From a virus, in IMG/VR virus record IMGVR_UViG_3300014720_000002: a stretch of DNA of 64,000 bases. The stretch is one strand, 5' to 3'. Below the pieces are notes generated by a model. It did not search any database. It was not told the origin of the DNA and saw only the letters and a program-made list of their open reading frames with translations. Positions 6,600 through 33,599 of the stretch are shown in pieces (within the stretch, counting starts at the first letter, position 1; each line of letters starts with the position of its first letter). A program made the translations under genes and the position numbers.

Positions 6600-7109
6600 G
6601 TGAACACGGCCCCGAACGATTCTTTCAGCAAGGCACTTTCCGCAGTCCGTGCCGCCCGTGAACAGGTCGCCAAGCTCGCCTTCGTGCCGCTCCCGCCGGA
6701 TCAACCGGCCCCGCCGCAACAAGCCATGCCGATGGATCCCAGCATGGCCGGCGGTGGAATGGCACCTGGCATGATGCAAGGCGACCCGGCAGCAATGCCT
6801 CCGGGTGACCCGATGGCGGCTCAGGCCGGTGGTGTCCCGCCAGGCATGGCGCCCATGATGCCCCAGGGCGCACCACCGGCCGAACCGATGCCGCAGGAAG
6901 ATCTCGGCCCGGTGATCGAGCAGATCATGCAGGCCATGCAGGCGGTGGACGAAACGCTCCGCCAGTTCGCGCAGGAACATTCCCAGCTTGCCCAGCAGGT
7001 GGAGCAGTTGGGACAGCAGATGCAGCAGATTGTCCAGCAGCACGAGATGCTGATGGAGGCGATCAAGGAACCCTCTCCGATGGATGGCAGTGTGCAGCAG
7101 CCGATGTGA
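6600..7109 (+). CDS. Low-complexity Pro/Met/Gly/Gln-rich protein with C-terminal coiled coil
   Basis: GTG 6600 follows the stop at 6597. VAKLAFVP (KxA) precedes the low-complexity region, then a Gln-rich helix. Confidence 0.6.
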   Translation: MNTAPNDSFSKALSAVRAAREQVAKLAFVPLPPDQPAPPQQAMPMDPSMAGGGMAPGMMQGDPAAMPPGDPMAAQAGGVPPGMAPMMPQGAPPAEPMPQEDLGPVIEQIMQAMQAVDETLRQFAQEHSQLAQQVEQLGQQMQQIVQQHEMLMEAIKEPSPMDGSVQQPM

Positions 7110-7111
7110 AC

Positions 7112-7486
7112 ATGAACCCTACCCTTAAACTTGAACTGTCGTTGTGCCTGGTGAAGCAGGCCGACATGTCTGGCATGGGCGGGGCCGCCTCCGGCCTGTT
7201 GGGCTGGCCGGGCGCTGCGCTCTACGGCGGGTTGGCTTCCGACAAACATCCCGGACGTGACGCGGCGATGATGGCTGGTGGCAGCATGGCTGGAGGAACA
7301 GCGGGTGCCCTCGGTGCCTACCTTCTCTCGGCCCTGGCCGCGCGCAACCGGCCTGGTGCCTTGGGCGGTTCGTTGGTCGCGGCTCTGCTCGGTAGCACAG
7401 CGGGATCGGCTGCTGGCTCCGGTCTTACTGCCCGCCATCTCGCACAGGACAACACGCCGCACTGGCGCAAGGCCCTCGGACTCTAA
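7112..7486 (+). CDS. Small Gly-zipper protein with LVKQA leader (putative head-packaged protein)
   Basis: MNPTLKLELSLCLVKQAD is followed by Gly/Ala-rich hydrophobic helices. Confidence 0.6.
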   Translation: MNPTLKLELSLCLVKQADMSGMGGAASGLLGWPGAALYGGLASDKHPGRDAAMMAGGSMAGGTAGALGAYLLSALAARNRPGALGGSLVAALLGSTAGSAAGSGLTARHLAQDNTPHWRKALGL

Positions 7487-7489
7487 CCC

Positions 7490-7717
7490 ATGCTCCGCCT
7501 CCGCCATCAAGACGGCAAGCTCACGGAAGTCCCCGCCGGGGTCTTCGTGGAGATTGTCGATCCGGGCACGCAGAAGTTGGGTGCCGCGCTCTTCTCACCC
7601 CGACCCGGCGAAGTCCTGCAGATCACGCCCGGCTCACCGGACGCGCGGCGCTACACCACCATGTTCCCTGGCGTCCAGTTTGCCGATGCGGTGATCCCCC
7701 GCTCCAGCCATGTCTGA
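7490..7717 (+). CDS. Hypothetical protein
   Basis: Fills the gap between neighbours with typical codon usage. Confidence 0.6.
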   Translation: MLRLRHQDGKLTEVPAGVFVEIVDPGTQKLGAALFSPRPGEVLQITPGSPDARRYTTMFPGVQFADAVIPRSSHV

Positions 7718-8225
7718 CCTGCGCACCATGTCCAAGGCCGTCGCCGCTGGCAACCGCGCCACCACCGCGGACGCGATGGCCATGCAGGTGCCGTTCTTCT
7801 TCCCTGGTCGGCTGGTGGATGGGCAGACGCTGGGCTGGCTGCGCATCGCACGGCGCGAGATGTGGCTGGCTGGCTTCCGCGTGGACGCCAAGCTGCCCGG
7901 CGGCACGTCACTGACCCGCGCTGGCTTCCAGTTGTGCCGGGGCGACCTGCAGGCGATCTCGGGCGCGAAGCTGACGCTGGCTGGTGTCGTTCCGTCGGGC
8001 GAGCTTCGCCTGAACCCTGACTTCCCCATGCCGGCGGAGTCGCTGTGGACGGTGAAGCTGCTGAACGAATCTGGCGATGCCGTTGACACGCTACCGGCTG
8101 ACCTTACGCTGACCTACTGGCTGCGCTACGCGCCTGGTCCGTCGGGCAGCCTCAACTGGACGCCTTACTCCCTGCAGTCCGGCATTGGCTTCTACCAGGT
8201 CGGTGATACCTTCGTCGTCGGCTAA
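7710..8225 (+). CDS. Hypothetical virion-associated protein
   Basis: Beta-rich, ends with GIGFYQVGDTFVVG and sits directly upstream of a fibre-like gene. Confidence 0.55.
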   Translation: MSDLRTMSKAVAAGNRATTADAMAMQVPFFFPGRLVDGQTLGWLRIARREMWLAGFRVDAKLPGGTSLTRAGFQLCRGDLQAISGAKLTLAGVVPSGELRLNPDFPMPAESLWTVKLLNESGDAVDTLPADLTLTYWLRYAPGPSGSLNWTPYSLQSGIGFYQVGDTFVVG

Positions 8226-8237
8226 CGCCTCACTACC

Positions 8238-18697: not shown

Positions 18698-18729
18698 CCC
18701 TGCTTCCATTACCGTCGCCCAGCATCAGT

Positions 18730-19398
18730 ATGAGCAACCTCGCCAAGAAAGCTTTTGCCGAAGGATTCGCACGGCGCCAGCAACAGCTTGCCTCCGGCCT
18801 GGTGAAGTCGGCCATCCCCTCGCGCGCCGGCATGTTCATCGATCCCCGGCGCGCAGCGTATGTGGAGGCGCTCGGGCGTGATCTTTTCAAGAAGGTCAAG
18901 ACGGACAAGGGTCTGTTGAGCGGTCTGCGCGCTTCCATGCTGGGTGGCTATGAGGGTTACGACCGGCTGGGCTGGGCACAGCGCAACTACGTGGACAGCA
19001 TGCGCGCTCTTCAGAAGAAGCTCCGCGCCGCCCGTTCCGTGGGCAGCACGTCGGCTGAGCGCGCGATCCAGGCCGAGATGTCCCGGGCAAAGACGACGTT
19101 CAACGACACGAGCAAGCGGCTCTATCAGGAAGTTGGCACCACGGCGGAAGCGCGCATGCCGTTGATCGACACCGCCCTGCCGGCTGCTGGTGCCGCTGGT
19201 CTGGCCGGCGCTGGCGCACTGGGGATCGGCAATGTCACGGGTGCCAACTCGCAGCGCTGGGAGGATTACAACCACCAGGCGCAGATGCCGCTGCTCGAAC
19301 GGCTCCGTAATGTTTTCGCGCCGCAATCTGTGGCGCGTGATCAGTTCAATTCCTCCACGATGCCTCGTGGAGCCATGCCCAACTCGAATCACCAATGA
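18730..19398 (+). CDS. Putative internal head protein with KxA leader
   Basis: LAKKAFAEGF...GLVKSAIP, and a C-terminal AAGAAGLAGAGALG segment. Confidence 0.6.
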   Translation: MSNLAKKAFAEGFARRQQQLASGLVKSAIPSRAGMFIDPRRAAYVEALGRDLFKKVKTDKGLLSGLRASMLGGYEGYDRLGWAQRNYVDSMRALQKKLRAARSVGSTSAERAIQAEMSRAKTTFNDTSKRLYQEVGTTAEARMPLIDTALPAAGAAGLAGAGALGIGNVTGANSQRWEDYNHQAQMPLLERLRNVFAPQSVARDQFNSSTMPRGAMPNSNHQ

Positions 19399-20408
19399 AG
19401 ACTCTTCTCCCGGCAATCTATCTCGCCAACCGCAACCAGATGGTGAAGGAGGCCGACATGGCCGGTCTGCTTGGGCGTGGGCTCGGCTATGCCTTTCGTG
19501 GCGGTGCCGCTGCACCCGGACTTGCGCGGCGTGGGCTTGCCGCCACAGCCCGAGGTGTTGAAGCCATGCCCGGTCTGGCTCGGCAAGGTCTGCGTTCTAC
19601 CGCGCAGTTCGTCGAGAACATGCCTGGGCGCGTTGCTCGGGGTCCGGTTGGAAATGCTTACCGCTCTGGTGTGGCAAATTTTCGTGAAGGTGCCGGTTTT
19701 TCTTTGTCGCCGGACCAGGCTTGGCTGAGAATGACGCAGCGTGGAGATCAGTTTGCGCGCAGCCAGACGCCCTGGTTGCAGCGTTCAGTAGGCTTCAACT
19801 CCAATGGACTGGCGACCTTGGCTGGCACAGGGGCGGTAGGTGCTGGCGTGAGCGGATGGAACAGCCACCAGCTTGGATCTGACTGGGGGCAACAGACACT
19901 CCAGGCTGGCCGTGGCATGGCGCCTAGTTTCCACATGCCGGGCATTCAGTCGCCGGTGCAGATGAGTGTCCGTTCGCCGTTCAAGAGCGCAAGCTGGACC
20001 GGGCATTGGGTGAAGGTGGCAGGCACTCCGCTTCAGACCGGTATTCAGATAGCCATGCAAAAGACGGCACCCGCCTTGGGGGCCGCTGGAAAAGCTCTTA
20101 CACCCGCAATGGAGGCGGCCAAGCAAAGTCTCCCTTATCTGATGCCGCACAGGTCGTGGCTGAAGCACACACCCGAGGCAATCCGCCCTTATGCGATGGG
20201 CGCCCTCACCAGCGGCCCCGGACGCTGGATTCAAGATAATCCTGGCACGTCCGGTCTCATAGCCGGTGCCGGCCTCATGCGTGGCGGCGAATATGCGCGC
20301 AACACCGTCCGTGAAAACCGCATCGCCAACCTGAGCCCGATGGAACGGCTGATGATGGCGGGCGGGCTGATCTTCAACCCGCAGAGTGTCGCCAGCCGGC
20401 TCTACTAA
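19395..20408 (+). CDS. Gly/Arg/Ala-rich putative internal head protein with KxA sites
   Basis: QMVKEAD, PFKSAS, WVKVAG, with Gly-rich hydrophobic segments. Confidence 0.6.
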   Translation: MKTLLPAIYLANRNQMVKEADMAGLLGRGLGYAFRGGAAAPGLARRGLAATARGVEAMPGLARQGLRSTAQFVENMPGRVARGPVGNAYRSGVANFREGAGFSLSPDQAWLRMTQRGDQFARSQTPWLQRSVGFNSNGLATLAGTGAVGAGVSGWNSHQLGSDWGQQTLQAGRGMAPSFHMPGIQSPVQMSVRSPFKSASWTGHWVKVAGTPLQTGIQIAMQKTAPALGAAGKALTPAMEAAKQSLPYLMPHRSWLKHTPEAIRPYAMGALTSGPGRWIQDNPGTSGLIAGAGLMRGGEYARNTVRENRIANLSPMERLMMAGGLIFNPQSVASRLY

Positions 20409-20417
20409 CGCAATCTC

Positions 20418-22988
20418 ATGACAGCAACTCTCGACCAGCAGTGGCGCAAGCTCGCGGCGGCCACCGTCACCGCGCCGCGCGAGGAAGTGGAGCGCACCTT
20501 CGCCGACCTGGCCTACACCGTGGTCCAGAACAAGGCCGCCCCGCTCATGCGCCCTGGCTTCCGCGTGGGCTTCGAGATCGTGTTCACCAACGACCAGAAC
20601 ACGCGCATGGTCGGCATCTTCGTGTTCAAGGTTGGTCCGGCGATCTTCTACGTGCCGACCTTCTTCATCAATGGCGCGGTCAAGGGCGCCGAGATGATCT
20701 ACCGGGTCAAGGAGCAGCGCATCGTGCCGCTCACGCCCGAGTGGGCCGACTTCCTGGTGAACCTGCATCCCCGGGCCGAAGGCGTGGATGTGCCCACCTC
20801 CGACCGTGCGAACTACGGCGCGCAGATGGACCTTCGTTCGCTGGCCGCGCCGACGTATGCGGGGATGAAGGGCGTCGCCTTCGACAAGCAGGCGGCTGAA
20901 AACTGCGCGACCGCTGTGCTGCAGGAGATCGACCGTCAGTTGGATCTCAAGCAGGAGATGGGCGCTGACTTCAAGGGCGCACATGCCATCACCATGAAGA
21001 GCGGCGAACCGCTGCTCAATGTCTGGCTGGCCAAGCAGGCTTGGGGGGTGAAGATCGCCGAGGCGGATTACCGCCGGCCGGCCAAGGAGTTGGCCGCTGA
21101 CATCATCGCTGATCTGCGTGCCCAGGCCGATCCTGCCGCCACCATCAAGGCCGCGCGCCAGGGCGCCCATGCCCAGTTCAAGACATGGATGGAGATGCCG
21201 GTCAAGCAGGCCGCCGAGGAAGGCGTGTCCGTGCTGCGCCGCTTTGTGCTGGAGTCCGGCGGGCGCAGCGCCATGCGGAAGATCGCCAACACCGTCCAGG
21301 CGTCCCGCCCGTTTGCTGAGGCGCTCTATCTCGGGTCCGAGGAAGCGAACTACAGCCCGGATATCCCGGAGCAGGAAAAGCAGGCATCCGGCCCGCAGGC
21401 TGTGCTCATCGCCCATCTCAACCCGCTGGACAACGCTGCGGTCAAGCAAGCGTCAGCGGAGCAGATCCGGGAGGGCTTTGTGATCGAGGATCTCCGCAAG
21501 GAGGCTGAGGTCAACGTCGAGGTGGCGGATGACACGCGCTCCGAATTGCAGACCATCGCCGAGCCGGGCCAGTATGACGTGCTCATGGCGGGCGGCATCA
21601 TGCGTCCGGCCTTGGTGGGTTACTCCGACCAGTCCGACCTGCTTCACACCCGGCCTGGCAGCGGTAGCTGTTCGCCTGCTCCCTGCAGCCCTGTTTCGAT
21701 CCAGCAGTCCGACATCGTGCTGGTGGACCTGGAGACCGGCGAGTCGCGCTCGATCTGGAATTCGCGCGGCACCAACCCGCTGCATGGGCGCGGCGACGGC
21801 AAGGTGGAGACAGACAAGCTGATCGCCATGCCTTCGGCCGGCAAGTGCTACCGCCTGTGGGACTCGGAGAAGCAGACGCTGTCTCAGCCCTTCTACGTCC
21901 GCCGGGTGGACGACAAGGAGATGGGCCTGAAGCGCATCCAGATCTTCACCGGCTCCTGGCTCTATCGCGGCGAGCCCGGCACGCTGCTCTGGATCAACCC
22001 TGACTTCGACGGCGTCAACGTGGCGGAGAAGGTCATCGGCAACTGCTGCAAATTCATCGAGGTTGCGGCCAAGGTGGAGAAGCGCGAGTCCAACGCCACC
22101 GGACTGGCGCCCGCTACCGTTGCCACCAGCGGCAACCTGGCGGCGGTCAACCAGCTTCTCCTCGACCAGGATCTCAATGTGGCTTACGTCGGCGAGGCCA
22201 CACTCACTCCGGGTGATGGCTACGCGCTGGCGCAGATGATCTTCGGCGCTGGCTACAAGCGGGCCAGCCTGCAGTTGGCCGAAGGCGGCCGGTTCGTGGT
22301 TGAACTGGAGAGCGGCGTCAAGCTGGCTTCCCGGTTCAACCGTTTCGGCGCGCTGATGACACTCATGTCCCGCTGTGCCCTGCGCGAGAAGCTCGCCCGG
22401 ACGCTGGTGGAGCGCGCGGAGAATTCCGGCGTGGTCCGGTTCTTCTACCAGCCGTTCGAGAAGCTCGCCACCAACCTCGGCGTCAGCTTCCCTGAGTTCG
22501 AGCAGTATGTGAACGAGGACTTCGGTGTGCCGGCGGAAGGCAGTTCCATGCAGGCGGTGCAGGTGGACTCCACGCCTGTCGAAGTGCCGCAGCAGCGCAT
22601 CGGTGACCGCTGGAGCCTGGAGACGGGCGACACCACGGACACCATCGACGCCCAGCTTCCCGTCCAGTTGTGGGACATGTCCAAGTCCATGGGCCTGCCC
22701 AACCTGTTCGAGCACGGCGTGGTGGGCACGCTGGTCAACACCTACGACTCGGTCGGCATGGTGGACAAGTGGCTGCCCGACCTGGAGCAGGCCCTTGACC
22801 GGATCGGCCGGCTGCTCTTCCTCATCTACTGGAAGCCAGAGGATTTTGCCTCGGCCTACGGTAGCGACGACCAGACTGCGCTGGAGAACAAGGCGCTCTC
22901 CACCTTCAAGGCTTTCGGTGATCTCACCCTGGAACTAATGCTCAAGAACCGCGAGCACCAGCGTGGCTCGCCGGGCTTGATGTCCTGA
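20418..22988 (+). CDS. Large head-associated protein (856 aa), KxA-rich; function unknown
   Basis: Folded-looking N-domain (VGFEIV...VGIFVF...FYVPTFFINGAVKG). About 17 of 40 Lys are in K-x-A by hand count. Confidence 0.65.
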   Translation: MTATLDQQWRKLAAATVTAPREEVERTFADLAYTVVQNKAAPLMRPGFRVGFEIVFTNDQNTRMVGIFVFKVGPAIFYVPTFFINGAVKGAEMIYRVKEQRIVPLTPEWADFLVNLHPRAEGVDVPTSDRANYGAQMDLRSLAAPTYAGMKGVAFDKQAAENCATAVLQEIDRQLDLKQEMGADFKGAHAITMKSGEPLLNVWLAKQAWGVKIAEADYRRPAKELAADIIADLRAQADPAATIKAARQGAHAQFKTWMEMPVKQAAEEGVSVLRRFVLESGGRSAMRKIANTVQASRPFAEALYLGSEEANYSPDIPEQEKQASGPQAVLIAHLNPLDNAAVKQASAEQIREGFVIEDLRKEAEVNVEVADDTRSELQTIAEPGQYDVLMAGGIMRPALVGYSDQSDLLHTRPGSGSCSPAPCSPVSIQQSDIVLVDLETGESRSIWNSRGTNPLHGRGDGKVETDKLIAMPSAGKCYRLWDSEKQTLSQPFYVRRVDDKEMGLKRIQIFTGSWLYRGEPGTLLWINPDFDGVNVAEKVIGNCCKFIEVAAKVEKRESNATGLAPATVATSGNLAAVNQLLLDQDLNVAYVGEATLTPGDGYALAQMIFGAGYKRASLQLAEGGRFVVELESGVKLASRFNRFGALMTLMSRCALREKLARTLVERAENSGVVRFFYQPFEKLATNLGVSFPEFEQYVNEDFGVPAEGSSMQAVQVDSTPVEVPQQRIGDRWSLETGDTTDTIDAQLPVQLWDMSKSMGLPNLFEHGVVGTLVNTYDSVGMVDKWLPDLEQALDRIGRLLFLIYWKPEDFASAYGSDDQTALENKALSTFKAFGDLTLELMLKNREHQRGSPGLMS

Positions 22989-22991
22989 GCC

Positions 22992-23216: not shown

Positions 23217-24174
23217 TCCCAACACGGACGGACTGGTGGACCGGCTGGTGTTCTGCCTGCATGATCCCCAGGTCGGCTTCCGTTTTGTGCAGGCGCACAT
23301 CGAGATGGGCGTGCCAATGGATCCGACCATCAACGAGGAGTCGCTGCACCTGGCCTACAACTACATGAAATGCACGGACACGGAGCACCAGCATTTCATG
23401 ACGGCCTATGCCCTGCACATGAACCATCCGCAGAGCGGCGTGCTGGGCAGCCTGGTGCGTGCCTACCTGATCTGCCCGGACATCAGCTACCAGAAGATCA
23501 GTTCCGACCTGAAGGTGCCGGTGGCGGCGGTGCGGCTCTTCGAGGAACTGTTCTTCAACGTCCGCGACCGGATGGACGAGCCGGCCTATATTCACGGCGT
23601 GGTGTTCCCTGAGACCCGCATGCCTATCATGCGTCCGGGCTATGGTGACCGTGAGGATCCTCGCCTCATCGTGCTGCGCATGGCCTACGATCACGGGATC
23701 GAGCCGGCCATGGCGGTGTCCGGCCGTCGGTCGGCCATGACGCAGGAACACAACTCCTCGGATTCGGCGTTGCGTGTGGAAGGTTCCATCATGAGCACGG
23801 CGCTCACCCAGGCGCGCATCGGCATGGGCAGCGGCGCGGCCCTCAGCCACGCCCGGCAGATGATCTCGGCGGCCAAGATCGGCGGGCAGGAGCAGGGCAA
23901 TGACGGGCGCATCTCCGGGCTGGAGTCGGTGGCCAATCGGCATCCGGTCTCAGATGAGATCAAAGCCTACAACAATCCGGACACCCGCGCGCGGTTGTTG
24001 AACGAGTCGTTCAGCGAGGTGGCGAAGAAATCGCCGGACGCCCTCATGCTGCCTGACCAGTTACCGTCGCGCCGTCCTGACTATCAGCCAGGCGTGGCGC
24101 CGGAACTCATCGCCAAGCTGCGCAGTGCCGGAATCAAGAAAGAGGCGGCCAAGGCACAGCCAGTCAAGGCTTAG
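23125..24174 (+). CDS. Hypothetical protein with HTH-like segment
   Basis: ISYQKISSDLKVPVAAVRLFEELFFNVRDRM resembles a helix-turn-helix. Typical codon usage. Confidence 0.6.
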   Translation: MNRLQVTRLAQLLPEGCTYLRSLPAAPRRLDPNTDGLVDRLVFCLHDPQVGFRFVQAHIEMGVPMDPTINEESLHLAYNYMKCTDTEHQHFMTAYALHMNHPQSGVLGSLVRAYLICPDISYQKISSDLKVPVAAVRLFEELFFNVRDRMDEPAYIHGVVFPETRMPIMRPGYGDREDPRLIVLRMAYDHGIEPAMAVSGRRSAMTQEHNSSDSALRVEGSIMSTALTQARIGMGSGAALSHARQMISAAKIGGQEQGNDGRISGLESVANRHPVSDEIKAYNNPDTRARLLNESFSEVAKKSPDALMLPDQLPSRRPDYQPGVAPELIAKLRSAGIKKEAAKAQPVKA

Positions 24175-24192
24175 AGGTCAAGCTCAATTTGG

Positions 24193-24223
24193 GCTTGTTA
24201 AAGCCAACCACGCTGCCTATTGT
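24193..24223 (+). promoter_or_regulatory. Putative promoter GC-TTGTTA-N17-TATTGT
   Basis: Best sigma70-like match in the window, in an AT-richer intergenic gap ahead of the head genes. Confidence 0.6.
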
Positions 24224-24247
24224 GGCCCAACGCAGTGGCTATGGCTT

Positions 24248-25714
24248 GTGAGACAAGAACTTCTAACTTGGCTGGTTGATGACATTGCTCCGGCAGTGAA
24301 GCAGGGCGCTTCGGCCGAGGACGCAATCATCAAGCTCGCGACCGATCAAAACCTTGCCCCGGCTGCCGTCGAGGCGCTTGGCCAGTTGTTCAACACGGCC
24401 AAGACTGTCTCCTACCTGGACAAGGCAGCTTCGCGCGGCGGCACCTTCAAGATTCTCGACGTGCCGGGACTGGTGTCGCGGTATCTCACGATGAAGCCCG
24501 TCACCACCTCGACCAAGACCGCTGGCGCCGAGCCGCTGTGGGAGGCCGATTGGGACGAGGTGCAGACCCTGCCCTCCGTGCTCAAGTCGCTGGTGCAGGA
24601 CGCCGACCCCGTGCTGGAGACTGCCATGCCGGCAGCGCACATCCTGGCCAAGAGCGCCTCCGCGCCGCTGGCATCGCAGGATCTCGTCAAGGCCGCCGGG
24701 GATGTGCTGCGTCAGCGCGAGTTCGACCTGCTGGAAGATGCGCGAGGCGTGCTTCGACAGATCCACGCCAAGGTGGCGGGCTGCACCATCTCGTTCAGCG
24801 AGGTGGAGGCGGATGCCCTGCTGCTGCACGGCGACAAGATCAAACCTGCCGTCGAGCAGGCGGCGCGTTTCTGCAAGGCTTCGCACCTGGCGGTTGAGCG
24901 TGCTACCGGCCCCGGCTCCCGGCGCCTGGTGATCGACACCGAAGGCATGCAGCCGCTCTTCCTCAAGCTGGCCGAACTGCAGTCACAGCTTGATCAGGTG
25001 CGCGGCAAGACCACGCAGATGGATGCGTTGACCAAGGAGGCGGTCAGCGCCGCCACGGCCACTGAGTCGTCCCGTGCATCCACCAAGCCCAAGGTGCCTG
25101 ACATGCACGCCGCCCCGGCCGATGACGCCGAAGGTGGCAAAGGTTCTGATCGAGGCGACCGTTCTTCCGGCGGCAAACCGCAAGGCGGCAAGCCTGCGCG
25201 ACCTTCTGGTGGCGGTAGCTCACCCTCTGCGCCCAGTGGTGGCAAGGGTGGCGGCGGCAGTGCCAAGACAGTGCTGACGGACTCGTCGGAGTGGCTGTCC
25301 AAAGGACCGGTTGGCGCCATGGCCGACGAGTATGTCAGCCAGGCCAAGAAGGTGCTGATGTCGCCAAACAACACCGGGCAGGAACTCGTGGACGACAGCG
25401 CGCAGGATTACGAGCAGACCTCCATGCTGCAGAAGCTGCTCCTGACCGATGAAGTGCTGTCTGACGCCGACCCTGAGCGCGTTGCCGAAATCTACAACAC
25501 GTTCCGGACCACGATGCCGGCGTTGGCGGCTGATCCAAATGTGATGCGCGTCGCGCTGCGCAGCGCGCTGCAGCACGACGGCATCGCGCCGTTCGATGTG
25601 AAAGGTTTCCTCGACACGCAACTGGCCGCGCAGCGGATGGACCTCAACCGCCGGCAGTTGAAAGACACCCTCTACAAGGGCAAAGACTTGCCAGCCGCCA
25701 AGGGACGGGATTAA
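24248..25714 (+). CDS. Head-associated protein with KxA sites and a Gly/Ser/Pro linker
   Basis: GTG start chosen downstream of the promoter. Contains IIKLAT, LDKAAS, LAKSAS, LVKAAG, LTKEAV. Confidence 0.6.
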   Translation: MRQELLTWLVDDIAPAVKQGASAEDAIIKLATDQNLAPAAVEALGQLFNTAKTVSYLDKAASRGGTFKILDVPGLVSRYLTMKPVTTSTKTAGAEPLWEADWDEVQTLPSVLKSLVQDADPVLETAMPAAHILAKSASAPLASQDLVKAAGDVLRQREFDLLEDARGVLRQIHAKVAGCTISFSEVEADALLLHGDKIKPAVEQAARFCKASHLAVERATGPGSRRLVIDTEGMQPLFLKLAELQSQLDQVRGKTTQMDALTKEAVSAATATESSRASTKPKVPDMHAAPADDAEGGKGSDRGDRSSGGKPQGGKPARPSGGGSSPSAPSGGKGGGGSAKTVLTDSSEWLSKGPVGAMADEYVSQAKKVLMSPNNTGQELVDDSAQDYEQTSMLQKLLLTDEVLSDADPERVAEIYNTFRTTMPALAADPNVMRVALRSALQHDGIAPFDVKGFLDTQLAAQRMDLNRRQLKDTLYKGKDLPAAKGRD

Positions 25715-25724
25715 ACTCTCCGGC

Positions 25725-26644: not shown

Positions 26645-26648
26645 TCGT

Positions 26649-27680: not shown

Positions 27681-27683
27681 CGC

Positions 27684-29147
27684 ATGGACAAGGTCATCTT
27701 CTCCCACGACAACGACGCGGTCCTGAAACGGGCCGGCGGGCATCTGGCCTTCCTGTTCGAGAATGCGCGTCAGGTGAAGTCGGCGGCCTCGTCGGCTTTC
27801 TCTGACAAGCTGCTGCGCCAGCATCTGCCGGACGACAACCACTTCGGCGTGCACCTCATTGCCATGGGGGCGAGCGAGAACTACGGCTTCAACAAGAACG
27901 GCGACCACTGGGCCAGGCCCGACCTCAAAGCCCGGCACGACACGTTCGTGAAGTGCGGTCATTTCTTCGTCGAGCACCGCAACCGCGATCCCAAGCTCGC
28001 CATCGGCAAGATCGCGGCGTCGGGCTACAACGACGAGATGGACCGGGTGGAGTTGGTGGTGCACGGCTGCAAGAAGAAGGCGGCGGAACAGCACGAGCGC
28101 GCCAAGCGAGGTGAGCCACTCGCCTTCTCGATGTCAGCGCGGGTGCCCCACGATGTCTGCTCGTGCTGCGAGAACCACGCCAAGAGCGCGCGGTTTTATT
28201 GCACGCATCTGGCCAACCGCATGACCCAGTTCGTGCCGGAGTTCCAGAAGTTCGCCTACGCGCGCAATCCGCAGCCGACGTTCTTCGACATCTCCGACGT
28301 GCGTAATCCGGCTGACCGCATCGCCTGGTATCTCGAATACATGCTGGACAAGGACAACCAGAAGGCGGCGTCGGCGGAGTTCCCGTTCAGCAACCTGGTG
28401 GCCGAGCGCATCGGCGTCGGACTGCCGACGGAGTTGGGCTGGTCCACCGTGGCGGGACGGGCCGTGCTGGAAAAGCTCGCGCACGAGGAGGCGTTCACGC
28501 AGGCCGTCCTCCGGGGCGAAGTGAAAAGCGAGGATGGTCGCGCGCATCTCGTGAAAGAAGCGATGCCGTTCCTGTTCACGGGCGACGAGATTTCTGACGC
28601 GCAGTTGCAGATCTTGCGGCAGGTGCAGCCCGACGTGGTGTTTCACCATCTGGCCAAGCATGCGGCCGTGCTGCCTTTTCCAACTTTCTTCGCGATGGTC
28701 AACGGCATCACACTGGCCGAAGCGGATCAGCACGCGGTCTGCAAGGCCGCACAGCAGAAGCTGTCCACGCTGTTCCGCGACCTGCAGCAACAGCCGGCCG
28801 AGCCGGAACTGGAGCAGTTGTTCGCGCCGGCATCGCTGTTCAAGGCCGCCTGTGAGTGTGGGCCGGGTGACCCGGTTCAGTCACTACTCGACCAGGTCGG
28901 CGAGAAACTTTCCATGCAACCTGCCCAGGTGCGTGTCCGGGTGGTTCGGACCTGTGCAGCCGCCCCGGAGCAACACAAGAGCGCGTCGGCTGTTTCCGAC
29001 GAGTTCCCGGCCGAGGTCATGGAGAAGGCGGCGAACGTCAGCCGTGCCTACGCCACTTACAGGGTGGCGCAGTTGGTTCACCTCACTGATCACAACCTGA
29101 TTGACGATCCGGTTGTGCCGCTGCTATTCTGTCAGCACAAACGCTAA
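27684..29147 (+). CDS. Putative prohead maturation protease (HK97/assemblin-like) with Cys/His Zn-binding insert
   Basis: YGFNKNGDHW, FFVEHRN, AIGKI, LAFSMSARVPHDVCSCCEN...FYCTHL. Located before the scaffold, cement and capsid genes. Confidence 0.65.
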   Translation: MDKVIFSHDNDAVLKRAGGHLAFLFENARQVKSAASSAFSDKLLRQHLPDDNHFGVHLIAMGASENYGFNKNGDHWARPDLKARHDTFVKCGHFFVEHRNRDPKLAIGKIAASGYNDEMDRVELVVHGCKKKAAEQHERAKRGEPLAFSMSARVPHDVCSCCENHAKSARFYCTHLANRMTQFVPEFQKFAYARNPQPTFFDISDVRNPADRIAWYLEYMLDKDNQKAASAEFPFSNLVAERIGVGLPTELGWSTVAGRAVLEKLAHEEAFTQAVLRGEVKSEDGRAHLVKEAMPFLFTGDEISDAQLQILRQVQPDVVFHHLAKHAAVLPFPTFFAMVNGITLAEADQHAVCKAAQQKLSTLFRDLQQQPAEPELEQLFAPASLFKAACECGPGDPVQSLLDQVGEKLSMQPAQVRVRVVRTCAAAPEQHKSASAVSDEFPAEVMEKAANVSRAYATYRVAQLVHLTDHNLIDDPVVPLLFCQHKR

Positions 29148-29152
29148 CCGCT

Positions 29153-30340
29153 ATGTCTCAATCAATCCTCACCTTCGAGCAGCTTGGCCAGCGCCTCAAC
29201 GCCCGTTCCAAGTCGGCCTCCACTCCCGCGACGCCGACCAAGTCGGCCTGTGATGTTCCGGCCGTGCCGGAGAAAGATCCGCAGGACAAGGGCAACGTGG
29301 GCGTGCCGGTTGATCCCGCCGCCGCGCCCGCCAAGCAGAACGTGCCGGCCAGCGCCAGCAACGGCGGCGCCACTCCGACGCTCCCCGCTCCTGCGCCGGC
29401 CAAGACCGTTTCCGGCGAGGAGTCGCCGTCGCTCACCGACAAGATCGCCAAGGTGTCGTCCGGCATTGCCGGTGCCATCACCGCGATGCGCGCCGGCAAG
29501 TCCGCCTCCGAAGCTGCGCCGCCGAACGACAAGAAGAACACCGACGGCGACGCCGGCAAGGAAGCCAAGCCGGCGGATGCCGCCAAGGATCCCGCTGCCG
29601 CACCGGCTCCCGCTCCGGCCGCCGACCCCAAGGGTGCGCTGCCCAAGACCGAGCCGACCAACACGGACGCCAAGAAGGAGGCCAGCGAAGAAGTCACCAT
29701 CGACCCGGCGCTCTATGCCAAGTTCGCGGCGGAACTCGCCACCAGCGAGGAAGGCCAGGCGGTGATGCGCAAGATCGCTGAAGCCAAGTTCGGCGCTGGC
29801 GTGGCTGACGACCTGATCAAGGCCGCCATGTTCATGGCCGAGCAGGAAGCCCTCATCGAGGAAGCTGAGGCGTCCGGCGCATTTGCCGCCGAGGAAGCGT
29901 TCAAGTCTGCCTCTGCCGAGGACCAGCAGGCCATCATCAAGCTCGCCCACATCCACCAGGCCGGAGTCGCTGGCTGCACGGATGAACTGGAGCAGCACTT
30001 CTACCTGGAAGGCGCCAAGGCGGCTGCCGCCATGATGGAAGATCCCGCCATGATGGGCGAGGAGATGCCGGCCGACTACAACGGCGAGGGTGTGTCCGAC
30101 ACCGACATCGTCGCCGTGCTCGACCAACTCGTGCAGTCTGGCAAGGTCACCCCGGAAGAGGCCGCCCAGGCGCTGGCCATTCTGCAGGGTGGCGGCGAAG
30201 GCGGCGGTGAAGCTCATCCGGCTGGTGCCGGGGAACCGGCCGACGACGCTCCGCCCGAAGAGAAGGAAGCGCACGCGATTCTCAAGCAGGCCAACGCCAT
30301 CGCCGCAGGCGAGACGCCGGCTGCTCCTGCCAAGGCATAA
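29153..30340 (+). CDS. Putative scaffolding protein
   Basis: Ala/Pro/Glu-rich low complexity plus acidic helices with many KxA sites, lying between the protease and capsid genes. Confidence 0.65.
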   Translation: MSQSILTFEQLGQRLNARSKSASTPATPTKSACDVPAVPEKDPQDKGNVGVPVDPAAAPAKQNVPASASNGGATPTLPAPAPAKTVSGEESPSLTDKIAKVSSGIAGAITAMRAGKSASEAAPPNDKKNTDGDAGKEAKPADAAKDPAAAPAPAPAADPKGALPKTEPTNTDAKKEASEEVTIDPALYAKFAAELATSEEGQAVMRKIAEAKFGAGVADDLIKAAMFMAEQEALIEEAEASGAFAAEEAFKSASAEDQQAIIKLAHIHQAGVAGCTDELEQHFYLEGAKAAAAMMEDPAMMGEEMPADYNGEGVSDTDIVAVLDQLVQSGKVTPEEAAQALAILQGGGEGGGEAHPAGAGEPADDAPPEEKEAHAILKQANAIAAGETPAAPAKA

Positions 30341-30361
30341 CCGGCAGACATCGTTTCCGGC

Positions 30362-30850
30362 ATGGACCGCAATCTTCATGACGCAGTGGCGGGTCCGATG
30401 GGGGAAGCCCTGGCTACCTTGGAGGAAGCACTGTTGCAGCATGCGTCCGACCAGGCCAAGATTGCCGCCCTAACGGGCAAGCTCGCCGAGCAGGAACAAG
30501 TTCTCCTGCGGGTGGCTGATCTGGAGACCAAGCTTGCGGCGCAGGACAAGGTTATCCTGGAGAAGGTGGCGGCTGGTCGCCGTCCATTCGCCGCAGGCGA
30601 CCTGCAGAACTGCCTTACCCGGCTGGTCAATCTACATCTGCTGCGACCTGAGGTTCAGGAGAAGGTTGCCTCAGAACTTCAAGAGAATCCCAACCGGGTG
30701 TTCGGCATGATGCTCAGCCTGACCCAGGCGCTCATGAGCACGCCTTCGGAAGGCCAGCCGCTTACCAAGGAGGCTGACACCGATGCTGACGCCGACCCTG
30801 ACGGCTGGTGGCGCGCGGCGCGTGGCCTGCCGGTGGCAATGCGCTCGTGA
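30362..30850 (+). CDS. Coiled-coil head-assembly protein
   Basis: Heptad repeat containing LEKVAA, QEKVAS, LTKEAD. Confidence 0.6.
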   Translation: MDRNLHDAVAGPMGEALATLEEALLQHASDQAKIAALTGKLAEQEQVLLRVADLETKLAAQDKVILEKVAAGRRPFAAGDLQNCLTRLVNLHLLRPEVQEKVASELQENPNRVFGMMLSLTQALMSTPSEGQPLTKEADTDADADPDGWWRAARGLPVAMRS

Positions 30851-31158
30851 ACACCTTGTCCCCATCGTCTCGGCTGGAGGTTGCATTCGTGCTGGTCAAG
30901 CAGGCCGGTGCTTTGAACTGGCTGGCCCGCGGCGCTCGTGCTCTGCGCGGCACCATGAATGTCCCCATCGGGCGCACCCTCAACCCAGATCTCAGCGAGA
31001 TGGTCCTGCGCCAGCCCAAGACCAACTGGTTGCCGCGCAGTCTGCGTCCGGCGCCTAAGAAGCTGCCCATCGCACCAGACGGCGGTGATTCCGTTTTCCG
31101 TCCTCAAGCTCCTGCAACTGGTGGCTTGCCTTTTGAGCGTCCGCCTGGCAGTCTTTGA
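30847..31158 (+). CDS. Small protein with LVKQA leader
   Basis: GTGA overlap. MNTLSPSSRLEVAFVLVKQAG resembles the 7112 leader. Confidence 0.5.
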   Translation: MNTLSPSSRLEVAFVLVKQAGALNWLARGARALRGTMNVPIGRTLNPDLSEMVLRQPKTNWLPRSLRPAPKKLPIAPDGGDSVFRPQAPATGGLPFERPPGSL

Positions 31159-31243
31159 ACCGTCAACACTTTGAGGGGAATCCTCAAGCCCAGCGCCGGC
31201 TGTTCCGGCGGTGGTGAGTCAACAGTAGAAACGAAGCACACAA

Positions 31244-31789
31244 ATGCCTACTTACGGTGAATACCGGCGTTCAGTGCCCCGCGTCAACGTCCGTCGTGGT
31301 TACCACGGCAACGAGACCAGCGGCCTGACCCGCACCGCCAAGCCCAAGGCGAATGAAAGCATCCAGTCCGGTCAACTCATCTCCCTCGACAGCAATGGCG
31401 AGTGGGTCAAGGGTGTGGCCGCTGGCAAGGAACCGTTCATCGCGTTCCATGACCAGGCCGACACGGATGTTCAGTCGTCAGGGCTGCTTCTCGGGCTCTC
31501 ATGCGCCGGGGATTACGTGATCGAAACAGGCTGGTTCGTGGCCGCGTCCGTCTATGCCGAGGGCACTCCCCTCATGGCCGCGACGGGTGGCGACGCTGGA
31601 TCAGTGAACGTGGCCACCGATGGCTATGCTGGAACCACCGACATCGTTGGCGTCGTCTCGCACGGCGGCAAGCAGAACGTCGCGGCGGTCAACAGCCAGG
31701 CCGCCGCCACCGTCGTCAGCAGCGTGCTCACGCTCAATGTGCTGACGTTCACGACCCGCTGGATCCCGCATCGCGCGGATCAGGCTTAA
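31244..31789 (+). CDS. Capsid cement/decoration protein
   Basis: Small beta-rich protein directly upstream of the MCP (IQSGQLISLDSNGEWVKG...YAEGTPL...G). Confidence 0.65.
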   Translation: MPTYGEYRRSVPRVNVRRGYHGNETSGLTRTAKPKANESIQSGQLISLDSNGEWVKGVAAGKEPFIAFHDQADTDVQSSGLLLGLSCAGDYVIETGWFVAASVYAEGTPLMAATGGDAGSVNVATDGYAGTTDIVGVVSHGGKQNVAAVNSQAAATVVSSVLTLNVLTFTTRWIPHRADQA

Positions 31790-31818
31790 TGCCCTGAACC
31801 CAGAAAGGACTCACTACC

Positions 31819-32769
31819 ATGAATCCCCAGACTCAAGATCCAGTGGAAAACATCCAGGAACTGAACCAGAAACTTCTGGCGCAGATCGTGGAATCGCAGG
31901 ACGGCGAGGTCAAGCAGGCGAGCGCGGCCGGATCGAACATGATCCGCCGCAAGATCCGCGAGGAAGGTTTCCTCCGCCGGATCATCCCCGAGCAGACCGC
32001 GACCAACGACATGCTCGACCGGGTGCTCGAACACGACCGGCCCGTCATCATCGAAGACATGGAGCCGCTCTCCCGGGGCGCCCAGTCCATCCCGTTCGGG
32101 GCGAGTGCCTACGCTGAAGCCTACTACGGCAACAAGTTTGCCTGCGTCTTCAACGAGATCACGACCCCCGAGTGGACGAAGGACATCAACGAGTTGCGGA
32201 CCTACAAGATGGACCTCCGCCAGGTCATCACGGACAATTCCCTCAAGGACGTCCAGACCGAGGAGGACGGCAAGTTCATCGCCTCGGTGGACGACATCTG
32301 CGGGGCGAGCAACGGGGTCGGTGCAGCGGGGGTGCAGCAGCACTTCTCGTATAGTGGCGGGATCACGCGCGCGAACTACGTCAAGGCGCTGTCGGTCCTG
32401 GAAGACCAGTCCCTGAACAACGGGGTGTTCCTCTGCAATCGCAAGACTGCCAAGGAGTTCCTGAAGTTCAAGCGCGACGAAGTCGGCGGCGACCTGGCGG
32501 AGAAACTCTTCCAAGAGGGCCTCACCGCGCTGCAGACCTCGACGATCATGGGCGTGAAGCACATCTTCACGATCAAGCGCGACCTGGTCCCGGATGGCAT
32601 CGTCTATCTTTTCACGGAGCCCGGCTATCTCGGCCGATTCTACTCCTTGCAAAGTTTGACTCTGTTCGTGGAGAAGAAGAAGAACATCCTGCGCTTCTCG
32701 GCGCGGGAGACGATCTCGACCACCATCGCCAACCAGGCGGGTGTGGCCAAGATCAACTTCAACATCTAA
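31819..32769 (+). CDS. Major capsid protein (HK97 fold; recalls mycobacteriophage Bxz1-type MCP)
   Basis: IRRKIREEGFLRRII...YYGNKF...F.EITT...KDINEL...D...EEDGKFI. Positioned after protease, scaffold and cement, followed by a strong terminator, and with very biased codon usage. Confidence 0.8.
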   Translation: MNPQTQDPVENIQELNQKLLAQIVESQDGEVKQASAAGSNMIRRKIREEGFLRRIIPEQTATNDMLDRVLEHDRPVIIEDMEPLSRGAQSIPFGASAYAEAYYGNKFACVFNEITTPEWTKDINELRTYKMDLRQVITDNSLKDVQTEEDGKFIASVDDICGASNGVGAAGVQQHFSYSGGITRANYVKALSVLEDQSLNNGVFLCNRKTAKEFLKFKRDEVGGDLAEKLFQEGLTALQTSTIMGVKHIFTIKRDLVPDGIVYLFTEPGYLGRFYSLQSLTLFVEKKKNILRFSARETISTTIANQAGVAKINFNI

Positions 32770-32789
32770 TCCACGTCGAAAGACTCACG

Positions 32790-32825
32790 AACCGGCGGCT
32801 GTTCACTCAGCCGCCGGTTTCTTTT
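32790..32825 (+). terminator. Rho-independent terminator after MCP
   Basis: Perfect 12-bp stem AACCGGCGGCTG / CAGCCGCCGGTT, 6-nt loop, TCTTTT tail. Confidence 0.85.
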
Positions 32826-32846
32826 GGTGGAGGTCTGTCACTGGGA

Positions 32847-32880
32847 GCTTGTCTTTTCGCTGACGCACGCGCATCCTGTC
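32847..32880 (+). promoter_or_regulatory. Putative promoter GC-TTGTCT-N17-CATCCT
   Basis: Just downstream of the terminator. GCATCCTGT is shared with 51416-51424. Confidence 0.45.
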
Positions 32881-32891
32881 GGCACGTCATC

Positions 32892-33599
32892 ATGACCACG
32901 ATTCCCGTTCCCTACTCTCCCAGTTTCATCCGGGGCTTCACTGAGCGGTGCATGGCGCTGGGCCTGCCCGAGGAGGCGGCCTGCGAGCACTTCGCCAAGT
33001 TCGCCAACTGCCAGTTGCTCACCGACGGCGACATCGGCCAGGCGTTCGCGCAGACATTGAAAGCCAAATCCGCCACCGTCAGCACCCGCCACCTGACCCG
33101 GACACTCAACCCGGATGTGCTGGCTGCGGCGGTTTCGCTGCGCGTGTGGCATGGTGATGATCCGCTGTCCGATGCCATGCGCAAGGCCGCCGGGGCGCCT
33201 GATCCCGACGCCCAGACCGAATGGGACAAGCGCGATCCGCGGATCGTCAAGATCGCCACCACGCTTTCCGGCATGAGTGGGCAGTTCAATCAGATGCCGC
33301 TCAACCAGAAGCTCCTCATCGCCATGATGCTGGGCGGACTGGGTGGTGGCGCCTACCGGGCAGCCCAGCCTTCGGATGAAGACCAGGTGGCGGGGCGCGG
33401 GGTGACCAACCGGTTCGTCCGTGGCGCTGGTCGCGGTGCGGCCGTGGGTGCAGGCGCTGCGGCCGGCACCACGCTGGGGTCCGGACTGTCCGACTCCATT
33501 CACGCCAGCCCGGACTTCCGCATGCTGGCCGCTGCGCTGGGTGGCATCGGCGGCGGTGCCGTCGGCAACCGGCTGGTGGACGAAGGCCTGGGTCGCTGA
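32892..33599 (+). CDS. Gly-zipper protein with KxA sites (putative internal head protein)
   Basis: SFIRGF, FAKFAN, AKSAT, IVKIAT, then MLGGLGGGAY and GAGRGAAVGAGAAAGTTLG. Confidence 0.6.
   Translation: MTTIPVPYSPSFIRGFTERCMALGLPEEAACEHFAKFANCQLLTDGDIGQAFAQTLKAKSATVSTRHLTRTLNPDVLAAAVSLRVWHGDDPLSDAMRKAAGAPDPDAQTEWDKRDPRIVKIATTLSGMSGQFNQMPLNQKLLIAMMLGGLGGGAYRAAQPSDEDQVAGRGVTNRFVRGAGRGAAVGAGAAAGTTLGSGLSDSIHASPDFRMLAAALGGIGGGAVGNRLVDEGLGR

Follow-up and report, generated by a model that had tools for sequence, protein, structure and literature searches.

The head module of an uncultured 168-kb phage raises the question of why so many of its lysines are followed, two residues on, by an alanine (K-x-A), and of what might read this pattern. 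A sequence-only reading of the window, a 64,000-nucleotide stretch of this genome, had taken K-x-A for the processing motif of a maturation protease encoded from 27684 and, beyond this, for a flag marking dispersed small genes as head cargo. The sites quoted in that reading all exist, namely K32 of the major capsid protein (MCP), K17 of the open reading frame at 7106, K18 of the product of 19395, K26 at 18730 (LV-KSA-I), K25 at 6600 (VA-KLA-F), K68 at 30362 and the KSAS repeats of a scaffold-like protein.

A recount reproduced its hand counts exactly: K-x-A accounts for 17 of the 40 lysines in the 856-aa product of 20418-22988, compared to 4.6 expected from 1000 shuffles preserving composition (z 6.3), and for 16 of 28 in the 487-aa product of 27684-29147 (expected 3.7; z 7.1). 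The same pattern takes up 16 of 29 lysines in 29153-30340 (expected 6.6), 6 of 7 in 30362-30850 (expected 1.05; z 5.4), 10 of 35 in 24125-25714, 4 of 8 in 19395-20408 (expected 1.1; p 0.016) and 4 of 7 in 32892-33599 (expected 1.0; p 0.014). Per-protein enrichment against shuffled controls survives composition correction, with a total of 73 K-x-A in these seven neighbouring head-module proteins versus 22.8 expected, as compared to 188 versus ~203 in the remainder of the genome. Scored gene by gene across the genome, the enriched genes fall in a cluster at 19395-33599 of the window, with one more gene past the window's end. The proteins that had been offered as low-count controls roughly hold as such (1 of 43 lysines in a presumed sheath; 3 of 53 for the beta' gene). 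The sheath label itself was wrong: the protein in question, 1459 aa long and encoded at 35503-39882, has its PHROG matches among tail-fibre, baseplate and virion-structural families.

When 1600 gapped residue pairs were scanned without bias over 16 genes picked by position only (18146-33599), K-x-A ranked first (82 vs 32 expected, p 1.2e-13), followed by V-K; the 12 pairs ranked highest in the head module included no x-E pair, a statistical and not an enzymatic result, and K-x-A was absent from the 12 top-ranked pairs when the same scan was run on the rest of the genome. Within the same seven head-module proteins A-x-K, K-A, A-K, K-x-x-A and K-x-x-x-A were without enrichment, and both specified residues are strict across orthologues (K-x-A 2.76×, R-x-A 1.0×, K-x-S 0.79×, K-x-G 0.79×); p-values pooled over orthologues overstate significance because the sequences are related. 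The sites are evenly spaced (mean gap 25 aa, CV 0.55 vs 0.89 for random placement, P<0.0002), in keeping with the published rationale that additional sites produce fragments of a size that can exit the capsid (PMC5694885). A search for heptad periodicity found none, and the diversity of the flanking sequences in the head proteins indicates that the sites are not sequence repeats.

K-x-A was also the first-ranked pair in ~68 of 80 related phage loci with GC contents of 33-68%. As the alanine is encoded by all four Ala codons and the signal occurs in frame only, this persistence places the signal at the protein and not the DNA level. Among the relatives, the cultured Salmonella phage Arash and also Vibrio phage D69 show enrichment in the protease, in the protein after the protease and in two others; read across these loci, the motif travels with the protease gene. 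Applied to T4 gp20-gp24 as a positive control, the scan put I-x-E in first and L-x-E in fifth place, with the copies concentrated in gp22 and gp21; recovery of the known I/L-x-E motif indicates that such a statistical signature belongs to a protease motif. Taken together, the K-x-A signal is real, far above chance, and marks head-assembly proteins of this phage and its relatives.

One of these proteins, the 487-aa product of 27684..29147 (+ strand), is a prohead (capsid maturation) protease with a T4 gp21-type fold in its AlphaFold2 model (pLDDT 86.8). In the model, residues 1-208 form the gp21-fold domain, 210-231 a disordered linker, and 232-487 a helical C-terminal domain resembling a scaffold fused to the protease. 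In VIA-align, T4 gp21 (5jbl_A) stood clear of the lower-ranked structures (Z 12.4; rmsd 2.9 over 144 aligned residues), while the varicella zoster (VZV, 1vzv_A, Z 7.0) and HCMV (8j3s_A, Z 5.6) proteases, aligned over residues 52-217, fell into the tool's middling range and were clearly weaker; the top three Foldseek matches were all 5jbl chains (prob 1.00). By sequence, the protein matches phrog_18299 (head maturation protease) weakly (2.7e-5), and weak tblastn matches point to 'prohead/capsid maturation protease' genes of Rhodococcus phage E3 and Gordonia; a Pfam-A search returned no family at E<=0.1, including Peptidase_S78 (PF04586), and hhalign of a 61-sequence profile against T4 gp21 gave no significant match (E 0.16 over 18 columns). 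H57, H98, S149, D157 and D202, candidates for a catalytic His-Ser-Asp triad, are invariant in these 61 homologues, a Cys-rich insertion follows the conserved Ser, and the H98-S149 spacing resembles that of T4 H85-S140.

K-x-A is enriched in 118 of 120 protease homologues (1617 vs 466 expected). One site, K227-A-A229 followed by Ser (28362..28370, + strand), lies in the linker, within the pLDDT<50 segments 210-222 and 224-231, and a linker K-x-A occupies the same alignment column in 90% of 110 homologues; a cut there is predicted to free the protease domain from the C-terminal domain. Counting against cleavage as the role of the motif, the K104, K109, K131/132, K167 and K189 sites sit in confidently folded regions of the protease domain, and sites also occur in helices; access to them would require unfolding. 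The gene order 27684 (protease), 29153 (Ala-rich, scaffold-like), 30362, 31244, 31819 (MCP) is the same in Arash and D69.

A second line of evidence comes from the 316-aa HK97-type MCP (31819..32769, + strand), identified by phrog_2522 (major head protein, 1.3e-6), by 31% identity to gp226, the major capsid protein of Arash, and by a match to PF05065 (1.8e-4) below the gathering cut-off. Its K32-Q-A34 (EV-KQA-S; 31912..31920, + strand) is the predicted maturation site, at which a cut is predicted to remove a 34-residue propeptide and leave Ser35 as the mature N-terminus. A single K-x-A just before the conserved N-arm occurs in 56 of 56 distinct MCP orthologues, with varying x and flanks, and the K32 site scores in the 98th percentile of non-head K-x-A with a flank matrix. 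Conversely, the mature MCP bodies of the orthologues are depleted (27 vs 71.4 expected, 0.38×). Two observations count against this assignment: in large sub-clades Ala is often followed by I, L, V or Q, which misfits the small-P1' preference of the sites as a whole, and the mature MCP of the window itself retains two internal K-x-A (K106 and K209).

Similar alternation of site-rich and site-poor segments, at the same places across orthologues, was observed in two further families. The 856-aa head protein (20418..22988, + strand), orthologous to Arash virion protein gp218 and without a PDB fold match, has three clusters of K-x-A (residues 1-50, 201-361 and 614-682; 17 sites in all), with several sites in low-pLDDT segments; in its family of 53 members (orthologues and the window's protein) these three segments are 2.4-4.4× enriched, whereas 351-600 (0.64×) and 701-856 (0.63×) are depleted. 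In the 529-aa protein (24125..25714, + strand) all 10 sites fall within residues 70-356, and its 34-member family, likewise counted with the window's protein, is 3.7× enriched at 51-350 and 0.45× at 351-529, which predicts that a long N-terminal propeptide is shredded while ~180 aa at the C-terminus are kept as a domain. As read from these counts, there is purifying avoidance of K-x-A in the mature MCP and in the domains that the 856-aa and 529-aa families would retain (0.45-0.64×), as opposed to 2.4-4.4× in disposable segments.

Directly after the protease gene, as is the case for T4 gp22, lies the gene for the Ala-rich (23%) scaffold-like protein of 395 aa (29153..30340, + strand), which has KSAS at K20, K116 and K251 and whose orthologues hold 86 K-x-A versus 35 expected. 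Sites in the 162-aa protein encoded at 30362..30850 (+ strand) include K68 (LE-KVA-A), and their density suggests that it is probably a small protein of the core or scaffold and is broken down. Probable substrates are also the 337-aa product of 19395..20408 (+ strand), with K18 (MV-KEA-D) near its N-terminus, and the 235-aa product of 32892..33599 (+ strand) after the MCP; orthologues were found for neither in the loci compared. The 126-aa open reading frame at 7106..7486 (+ strand) has a single N-terminal site at K17 (LV-KQA-DM), which resembles that of the 19395 protein and, with an 88th-percentile flank score, is mildly suggestive of a candidate substrate only.

As for the flanks, F, L, M and I are raised at position -2, G, P, D and N are avoided at x, and Ser (3.2×) and Ala or Cys (2.1×) are favoured at position +3, immediately after the alanine; these preferences look like protease subsites. 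A flank matrix derived solely from other phages tells the K-x-A of the window's head proteins apart from the remaining K-x-A (p 1e-6), and finds those at 18730 and 18146 unremarkable. The proposal that one K-x-A would suffice to mark scattered small genes as head cargo is not supported, as 33 of 194 proteins have a site at residues 6-45, compared to 34.7 +/- 5.4 after shuffling.

What, then, reads the motif? Characterised relatives specify P3 and P1, with L/I-x-E in T4, S/A/G-x-E in phiKZ and A-x-E in SPN3US, and the i/i+2 geometry of K-x-A matches this rule (PMC5694885). From the fold, the 80 loci, the MCP border and the T4 control comes strong support for K-x-A as the motif that the phage's own protease uses in head maturation, a counterpart of the Glu motifs read by T4 gp21 and phiKZ gp175; it is very probably where this T4-type enzyme cuts, probably after the alanine by analogy. 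We consider it likely, overall, that K-x-A is the substrate-recognition motif of the prohead protease encoded at 27684-29147, with the cut most probably after Ala. The earlier reading is thus supported in part, with regard to its protease-motif core as judged from comparative sequence and fold; cargo flagging is not supported, and the sheath label is wrong. The Arash lineage is described as a singleton or orphan, in a virion proteome paper without peptide-level or N-terminal data and without mention of a protease (PMC10585845). Within the literature searchable, Lys-x-Ala is a specificity not yet described for T4-type capsid-maturation proteases, in agreement with the initial statement that the motif had not been characterised.

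In the mechanism that we infer, with respect to the cutting itself, the bond cut and the fate of the fragments, the enzyme would act in the assembled prohead at K-x-A, most probably after Ala, with Lys as P3, Ala as P1, a small residue, often Ser, as P1' and a hydrophobic residue at P5. It would free itself at the conserved linker K227-A-A↓S and then destroy its own tail, shred the scaffold-like proteins 29153 and 30362 as well as the long propeptides or linkers of the internal head proteins 20418 and 24125, and probably of 19395 and 32892, into peptides of ~10-45 residues that could leave the shell, and trim the capsid protein by its first 34 residues. K-x-A would have been purged from domains that need to survive, including the mature capsid protein.

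The same protease and motif could, however, be coupled to cleavage directly after the lysine (K↓x-A, with Lys as P1 and Ala as P2'), for which the Lys-directed cut of HK97 gp5 by gp4 provides a model. The two strictly required residues could be P1/P2' no less than P3/P1, position -2 with its hydrophobic preference would become P3, and the bulky residue frequent after Ala at the MCP site is easier to accommodate at P3' than at P1'. We nevertheless regard this placement of the bond as unlikely: T4 gp21 is the nearest fold (Z 12.4), characterised gp21-type enzymes (T4, phiKZ, 201phi2-1 and SPN3US) cut after the second specified residue (PMC5694885), herpes assemblins cut after Ala with Ser or Thr at P1', as would fit the 3.2× Ser right after Ala here, and the inability of Arg to replace Lys (R-x-A 1.0×) would be unusual for a basic-P1 pocket.

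K-x-A could also serve as a docking or capsid-targeting signal, or as a Lys-modification or cross-linking motif in head assembly, without being cut at all, as its conservation and restriction to head-module proteins would allow. In T4, capsid-targeting sequences coincide with cleavage sites (PMC5694885), and sequence alone therefore cannot separate targeting from cutting. Yet 10-17 evenly spaced copies per protein, including those in the tail of the protease, would be unneeded for targeting, the mature shell protein is depleted, opposite to what a shell cross-link or modification site should show, every MCP has a site exactly at the usual propeptide border, and the T4 control signature is that of a protease motif; such a role is improbable. 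A host protease, as used by Staphylococcus phage 80alpha, is a still more distant prospect, for even though no sequence feature proves which enzyme reads the motif, it is kept across very different hosts (Salmonella, Vibrio and those of uncultured phages of 33-68% GC) and is always found with the phage protease gene, whose product is itself the most enriched protein. Chance K-x-A from Ala-rich, Lys-containing amphipathic helices or internal repeats, as the 23% Ala of the scaffold-like protein and the helix-like avoidance of Gly and Pro around sites might suggest, is effectively refuted by composition-preserving shuffles with 3-5× fewer K-x-A, by the pair scan and the unenriched reversed or respaced pairs, by loci down to GC 33% in which K-x-A still ranks first, by diverse flanks without heptad periodicity and by sites that also lie in disordered linkers.

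The preferred reading, processing by the phage's own protease, can be set against four known systems. HK97 gp4 (MEROPS S78) is a phage prohead protease that cuts gp5 after Lys103, and is akin to the present enzyme in that the key MCP cut involves a lysine. It differs in that our protein has no Pfam S78 match and gp21 as best fold match, and we know of no Ala requirement at +2 or multi-site shredding in HK97. Herpesvirus assemblins (HSV/PrV pUL26, HCMV and VZV proteases; MEROPS S21), with sites (V/L)-x-A↓S/T, resemble the present enzyme in a middling fold match (Z 7.0 and 5.6), in Ala immediately before and frequent Ser after the predicted cut, and in an architecture that joins the protease, at the N-terminus, to a scaffold-like C-terminal part, its scaffold role here being predicted, with a release site in the linker. 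Gln is also frequent at x, as in the pseudorabies virus (PrV) sites YLQA-T and VQA-S, cut after Ala and predicted by alignment with other herpesvirus proteases (PMC4498786). In contrast to assemblins, position i is strictly Lys and not hydrophobic, there are many sites per substrate as opposed to two or three, and the protease fold is closer to T4 gp21.

The enzymes of the phiKZ group (phiKZ gp175, 201phi2-1 and SPN3US gp245; MEROPS S80), with the motifs S/A/G-x-E↓ and A-x-E↓ and Ser favoured at P1', likewise belong to large phages with a virion-associated multisubunit RNA polymerase and several internal head proteins with long N-terminal propeptides and multiple motif copies, in which the protease removes its own C-terminus (predicted here) and the cut is preferably followed by Ser (PMC5694885, PMC10052503). 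They all cut after Glu, however, whereas the phage studied here is of an Arash-like lineage and has a small capsid protein (316 aa, HK97-type). T4 gp21, the type enzyme of the prohead serine proteases with an assemblin-like fold (MEROPS S77/S80), acts on gp22, gp67, gp68, gp23, gp24 and internal proteins at L/I-x-E↓. It has no detectable sequence similarity to our protein, has 212 aa, as against 487 aa here, where a helical C-domain is fused on and a Cys-rich insertion follows the conserved Ser, and requires Leu/Ile and Glu where Lys and Ala are required here. Nonetheless, the two systems have in common the fold, the neighbourhood (protease, scaffold, MCP), the statistical signature in an identical scan and the logic of a two-residue motif at i and i+2, present in many copies in scaffold and protease and once at the MCP propeptide border.

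The window (bases 80542-144541) comes from one contig of 167,647 bp (62% GC) in which nearly all genes are borne on the plus strand. The head-morphogenesis module runs from the RNA polymerase beta' gene, which bears an intein (15128-18130), to one gene past that of the major capsid protein (MCP; 31819-32769). Megablast of positions 20000-33600 against the phage collection returned no match. Pfam held no family for the 487-aa protein regarded as the protease (27684-29147), nor for 7 of the 9 other head-module proteins scanned; the MCP matched PF05065 below threshold only, and the scaffold-like (29153) and 30362 proteins gave marginal matches only. For the 487-aa protein, a weak match to 'head maturation protease' was the only one obtained in PHROGs, the sole phmmer match among PDB sequences was a calmodulin-like protein, by chance, and hhalign of the protease profile with T4 gp21 was not significant. 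A fold search with the 856-aa protein (20418-22988) gave no credible match; this protein is the orthologue of gp218, a virion protein of the cultured Salmonella phage Arash.

Using an alignment of 61 homologues, we modelled the 487-aa protein with AlphaFold2 (pLDDT 86.8). Residues 1-208 of the model matched the T4 prohead protease gp21 (Z 12.4), ahead of the varicella-zoster and cytomegalovirus proteases (Z 7.0 and 5.6, respectively), and His57, His98, Ser149, Asp157 and Asp202 are invariant across the 61 homologues. This domain is followed in the model by a disordered linker (residues 210-231) and a helical domain (232-487), suggesting that the protease carries a fused scaffold-like tail. By fold and gene context the enzyme belongs with the gp21 type; by sequence family and by the Glu-P1 rule it does not. 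Directly after Ser149 (window 28128-28208, residues ~149-175), Cys159, Cys162 and Cys173 are nearly invariant in the family, with a nearby His in the window's own sequence; the cluster looks like a small metal-binding insertion, a feature that T4 gp21 is not known to have. Some homologues (P0055, P0080 and P0088) reach 631-839 aa and bear precomputed matches to PF05203 and/or PF13403, which we take to be the Hom_end-associated Hint and Hint_2 families, suggesting inteins in the protease gene of some relatives.

Counts of K-x-A (Lys-any residue-Ala) were compared with composition-preserving shuffles. The motif occupies 17 of 40 Lys in the 856-aa protein (4.6 expected) and 16 of 28 in the 487-aa protein (3.7 expected), reproducing exactly the hand counts of the sequence-only reading, and the per-protein enrichment survives the shuffles. 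The Ala-rich protein encoded 3' of the protease carries it at 16 of 29 Lys (6.6 expected), the small protein next after it at 6 of 7 (1.05 expected), and enrichment was significant in each of the proteins starting at 24125 (529 aa), 19395 and 32892. Summed genome-wide, K-x-A numbers 73 in the seven enriched proteins (22.8 expected) and 188 in all other genes (~203 expected). In an unbiased scan of all 1600 residue pairs (gaps 1-4) over 16 genes picked by position alone, K-x-A ranked first (82 vs 32, p 1.2e-13) and V-K second; in the rest of the genome K-x-A is absent from the 12 top-ranked pairs. Controls with A-x-K, K-A, A-K, K-x-x-A and K-x-x-x-A were flat. The identical scan of T4 genes 20-24 placed I-x-E first and L-x-E fifth, with the excess located in the scaffold gp22 (16 vs 5.8) and the protease gp21 (7 vs 2.6); the scan therefore recovers a motif that is established experimentally. 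The window's K-x-A signal is much stronger than that of T4.

The closest isolates are Arash, cultured on Salmonella Typhimurium, and the Vibrio phages D69, D148 and D181, at 31-39% identity in protease and MCP. Both Arash and D69 show K-x-A enrichment in their protease, in the next protein along and in two more from the head module. Database homologues of the protease are enriched 2-5x in 118 of 120 cases (1617 K-x-A vs 466 expected), no alternative motif being found in the rare non-enriched ones, P0092 and P0093 (645-657 aa). Scanning IMG/VR yielded at least 325 contigs with a relative. Over the 80 loci that were fetched (GC 33-68%), K-x-A headed the 1200 pairs in ~68 and ranked high in the remainder, where it was still visible in the neighbours of the protease. 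Directly upstream of the window's protease, a 343-aa protein (26649-27680, plus strand) has zero K-x-A; Arash (gp220) and D69 encode a strongly enriched ~310-aa protein two genes upstream of theirs, and relatives differ in which genes separate the 529-aa protein from the protease. Among distant protease homologues, those of Bacillus phage G (L083) show a weaker excess (gp19, 8 vs 2.5; gp21, 7 vs 2.8), and gp97 of Mycobacterium phage Myrna (L084) has 15 vs 7.4; R-x-A is also in excess in Myrna (36 vs 19.9), and its MCP core is preceded by K-L-A. The Arash-like lineage may not be the limit of a basic-x-Ala code.

The residues around 1815 orthologue sites follow preferences that resemble those of protease subsites. 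Phe, Leu, Met and Ile are favoured at -2 (counted from Lys); Gln is favoured and Gly, Pro, Asp and Asn are avoided at x; and at +3 Ser (3.2x) and Ala and Cys (2.1x) are favoured, with Leu, Val, Pro and Trp avoided. Scored with a flank matrix built from other phages only, the window's head-protein sites stood apart from the genome's other K-x-A (Mann-Whitney p 1e-6); that of the MCP reached the 98th percentile. Within site-rich segments the mean gap is 25 residues, with a CV of 0.55 vs 0.89 for random placement (P<0.0002). The predicted fragments of 10-45 residues would agree with a proposal in the literature, according to which additional sites yield propeptide pieces small enough to exit the capsid (PMC5694885).

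All 56 distinct MCP orthologues carry one K-x-A at residues ~24-36, abutting the conserved N-arm, with the middle residue and flanks varying freely. The N-arm border is the customary place of the MCP maturation cut. Mature MCP bodies hold 27 K-x-A vs 71.4 expected and none in 38 of 56, A-x-K not being depleted. Of the protease-family sequences, 90% have the motif within the disordered linker and 83% close to the N-terminus (K32); many further sites shift position while their total number is maintained. The 856-aa family is enriched in segments 1-50, 201-350 and 601-700 (2.4-4.4x), with 0.63-0.64x in the intervening segments, and the 529-aa family at residues 51-350 (3.7x), with 0.45x in the C-terminal 180 residues. 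A protease code would be expected to produce just such a succession of disposable and protected stretches; p-values pooled over orthologues are inflated by relatedness, and the regional pattern is consistent at only 16-34% identity.

The case for K-x-A as a cut motif is statistical, comparative and structural; that cuts occur, at which bond, and what becomes of the fragments, we infer. The phage's own gp21-fold protease would recognise K-x-A and cut after Ala, with Lys at P3, Ala at P1 and Ser/Ala at P1'. This placement is by analogy: the characterised gp21-type relatives cut after the second specified residue, SPN3US favours Ser at P1' (PMC5694885, PMC10052503), and herpesvirus sites are cut after Ala, as predicted for the PrV sites YLQA-T and VQA-S (PMC4498786). 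The protease would release itself at K227-A-A↓S and then degrade its own tail, together with the scaffold-like proteins and the propeptides or linkers of internal proteins, and the MCP would be trimmed by 34 residues. In Arash the MCP, gp226, is predicted to begin at Gly30, after K27-E-A29, and corresponding new starts are predicted in gp218, gp220, gp222, gp223 and gp225. Cutting directly after Lys (K↓x-A) is an unlikely alternative, favoured chiefly by the bulky residues that follow Ala at the MCP site in some sub-clades; orthologue frames ending exactly at K-x-A, sought to fix the scissile bond, numbered 7 of 1220, none informative. A relaxed [KR]-x-[ASG] specificity is rejected by the orthologues, in which K-x-A stands at 2.76x, R-x-A at 1.0x, and K-x-S and K-x-G at 0.79x. 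The signal is one at the protein level: all four Ala codons are used within K-x-A at background proportions and AAR-NNN-GC is nearly confined to the coding frame, which, with persistence across loci of widely differing GC, rejects a DNA-level motif. A helical heptad or repeat origin is likewise rejected, as sites show no heptad periodicity, offset-pair controls are flat and flanks are diverse.

As a processing code of the head protease, the proposal of the sequence-only reading finds strong support in statistics, comparison and fold; its extension to dispersed small genes, flagged as head cargo by a single K-x-A, is not supported. Genome-wide, single N-terminal K-x-A number 33 vs 34.7 +/- 5.4 in shuffles, and with no excess the motif alone cannot flag such genes. 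Among the sites scored at 18730, 18146 and 7106, the first two have ordinary flank scores and that at 7106, with a context like 19395's, is mildly suggestive. The protein taken as a 'sheath' in the low-count controls proved to be a 1459-aa tail-fibre/baseplate-like protein (35503-39882); in L003-L082, the fetched loci, its orthologues and those of the beta' piece hold K-x-A at 0.70x and 0.76x, respectively, without phylogenetic correction, which would fit motif avoidance in proteins meeting the protease. Outside the head module, ~6.2 kb past the window end, a 361-aa protein (150785-151870 of the source contig, G000:C1) has 16 Lys, 8 of them in K-x-A against 2.7 expected (p 0.002); flank scores are positive at every one of these sites, and the protein is likely a further substrate. 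An unannotated 116-aa ORF (30808-31158, plus strand, between 30850 and 31244; start codon uncertain) bears an N-terminal FVLV-KQA-G with the best flank score among the genome's non-head K-x-A (99th percentile) and may be a further small head protein that has a propeptide.

Taken together, a strict K-x-A code, emerging from sequence statistics alone, is common to hundreds of uncultured large phages. We tentatively propose, at somewhat short of an even chance, that in this large and scarcely studied lineage of 150-230-kb phages (at least 325 IMG/VR contigs plus Arash, D69, D148 and D181) a gp21-fold protease has left the Glu-P1 rule for a strict Lys(P3)-x-Ala(P1)↓Ser-like code, with assemblin-like P1/P1' chemistry and a scaffold fusion and release site, predicting head cargo and surviving segments from sequence alone. 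If confirmed, this would provide an annotation rule for the lineage's head cargo, propeptides and mature termini, covering proteins that are co-injected with the DNA and perhaps a motif-depleted virion RNA polymerase set; it would extend the specificity range of the gp21/assemblin fold toward the herpesvirus Ala↓Ser type and define a protease-substrate pair for engineered capsid cargo loading.

Prohead proteases determine which proteins remain in the phage head, and in what form. To our knowledge, their motifs have been established by mass spectrometry in just a few model phages. The sequence-only reading knew of no characterisation of this motif, and we found no K-x-A or Lys-directed prohead motif described in the searchable literature, and the Arash paper, the only one on a cultured member, mentions neither protease nor processing and, with its supplements, holds no peptide-level or N-terminal data (PMC10585845). 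The system resembles those of T4, phiKZ and SPN3US in kind, combining prohead protease, scaffold and propeptides, and the predicted 487-aa architecture resembles the protease-scaffold fusion of herpesvirus pUL26 (PMC4498786). Whereas in the gp21-type enzymes of T4, phiKZ, 201phi2-1 and SPN3US recognition is at P3 and P1 and the cut always follows Glu (PMC5694885), the lineage of the window shows, statistically, a K-x-A code instead.
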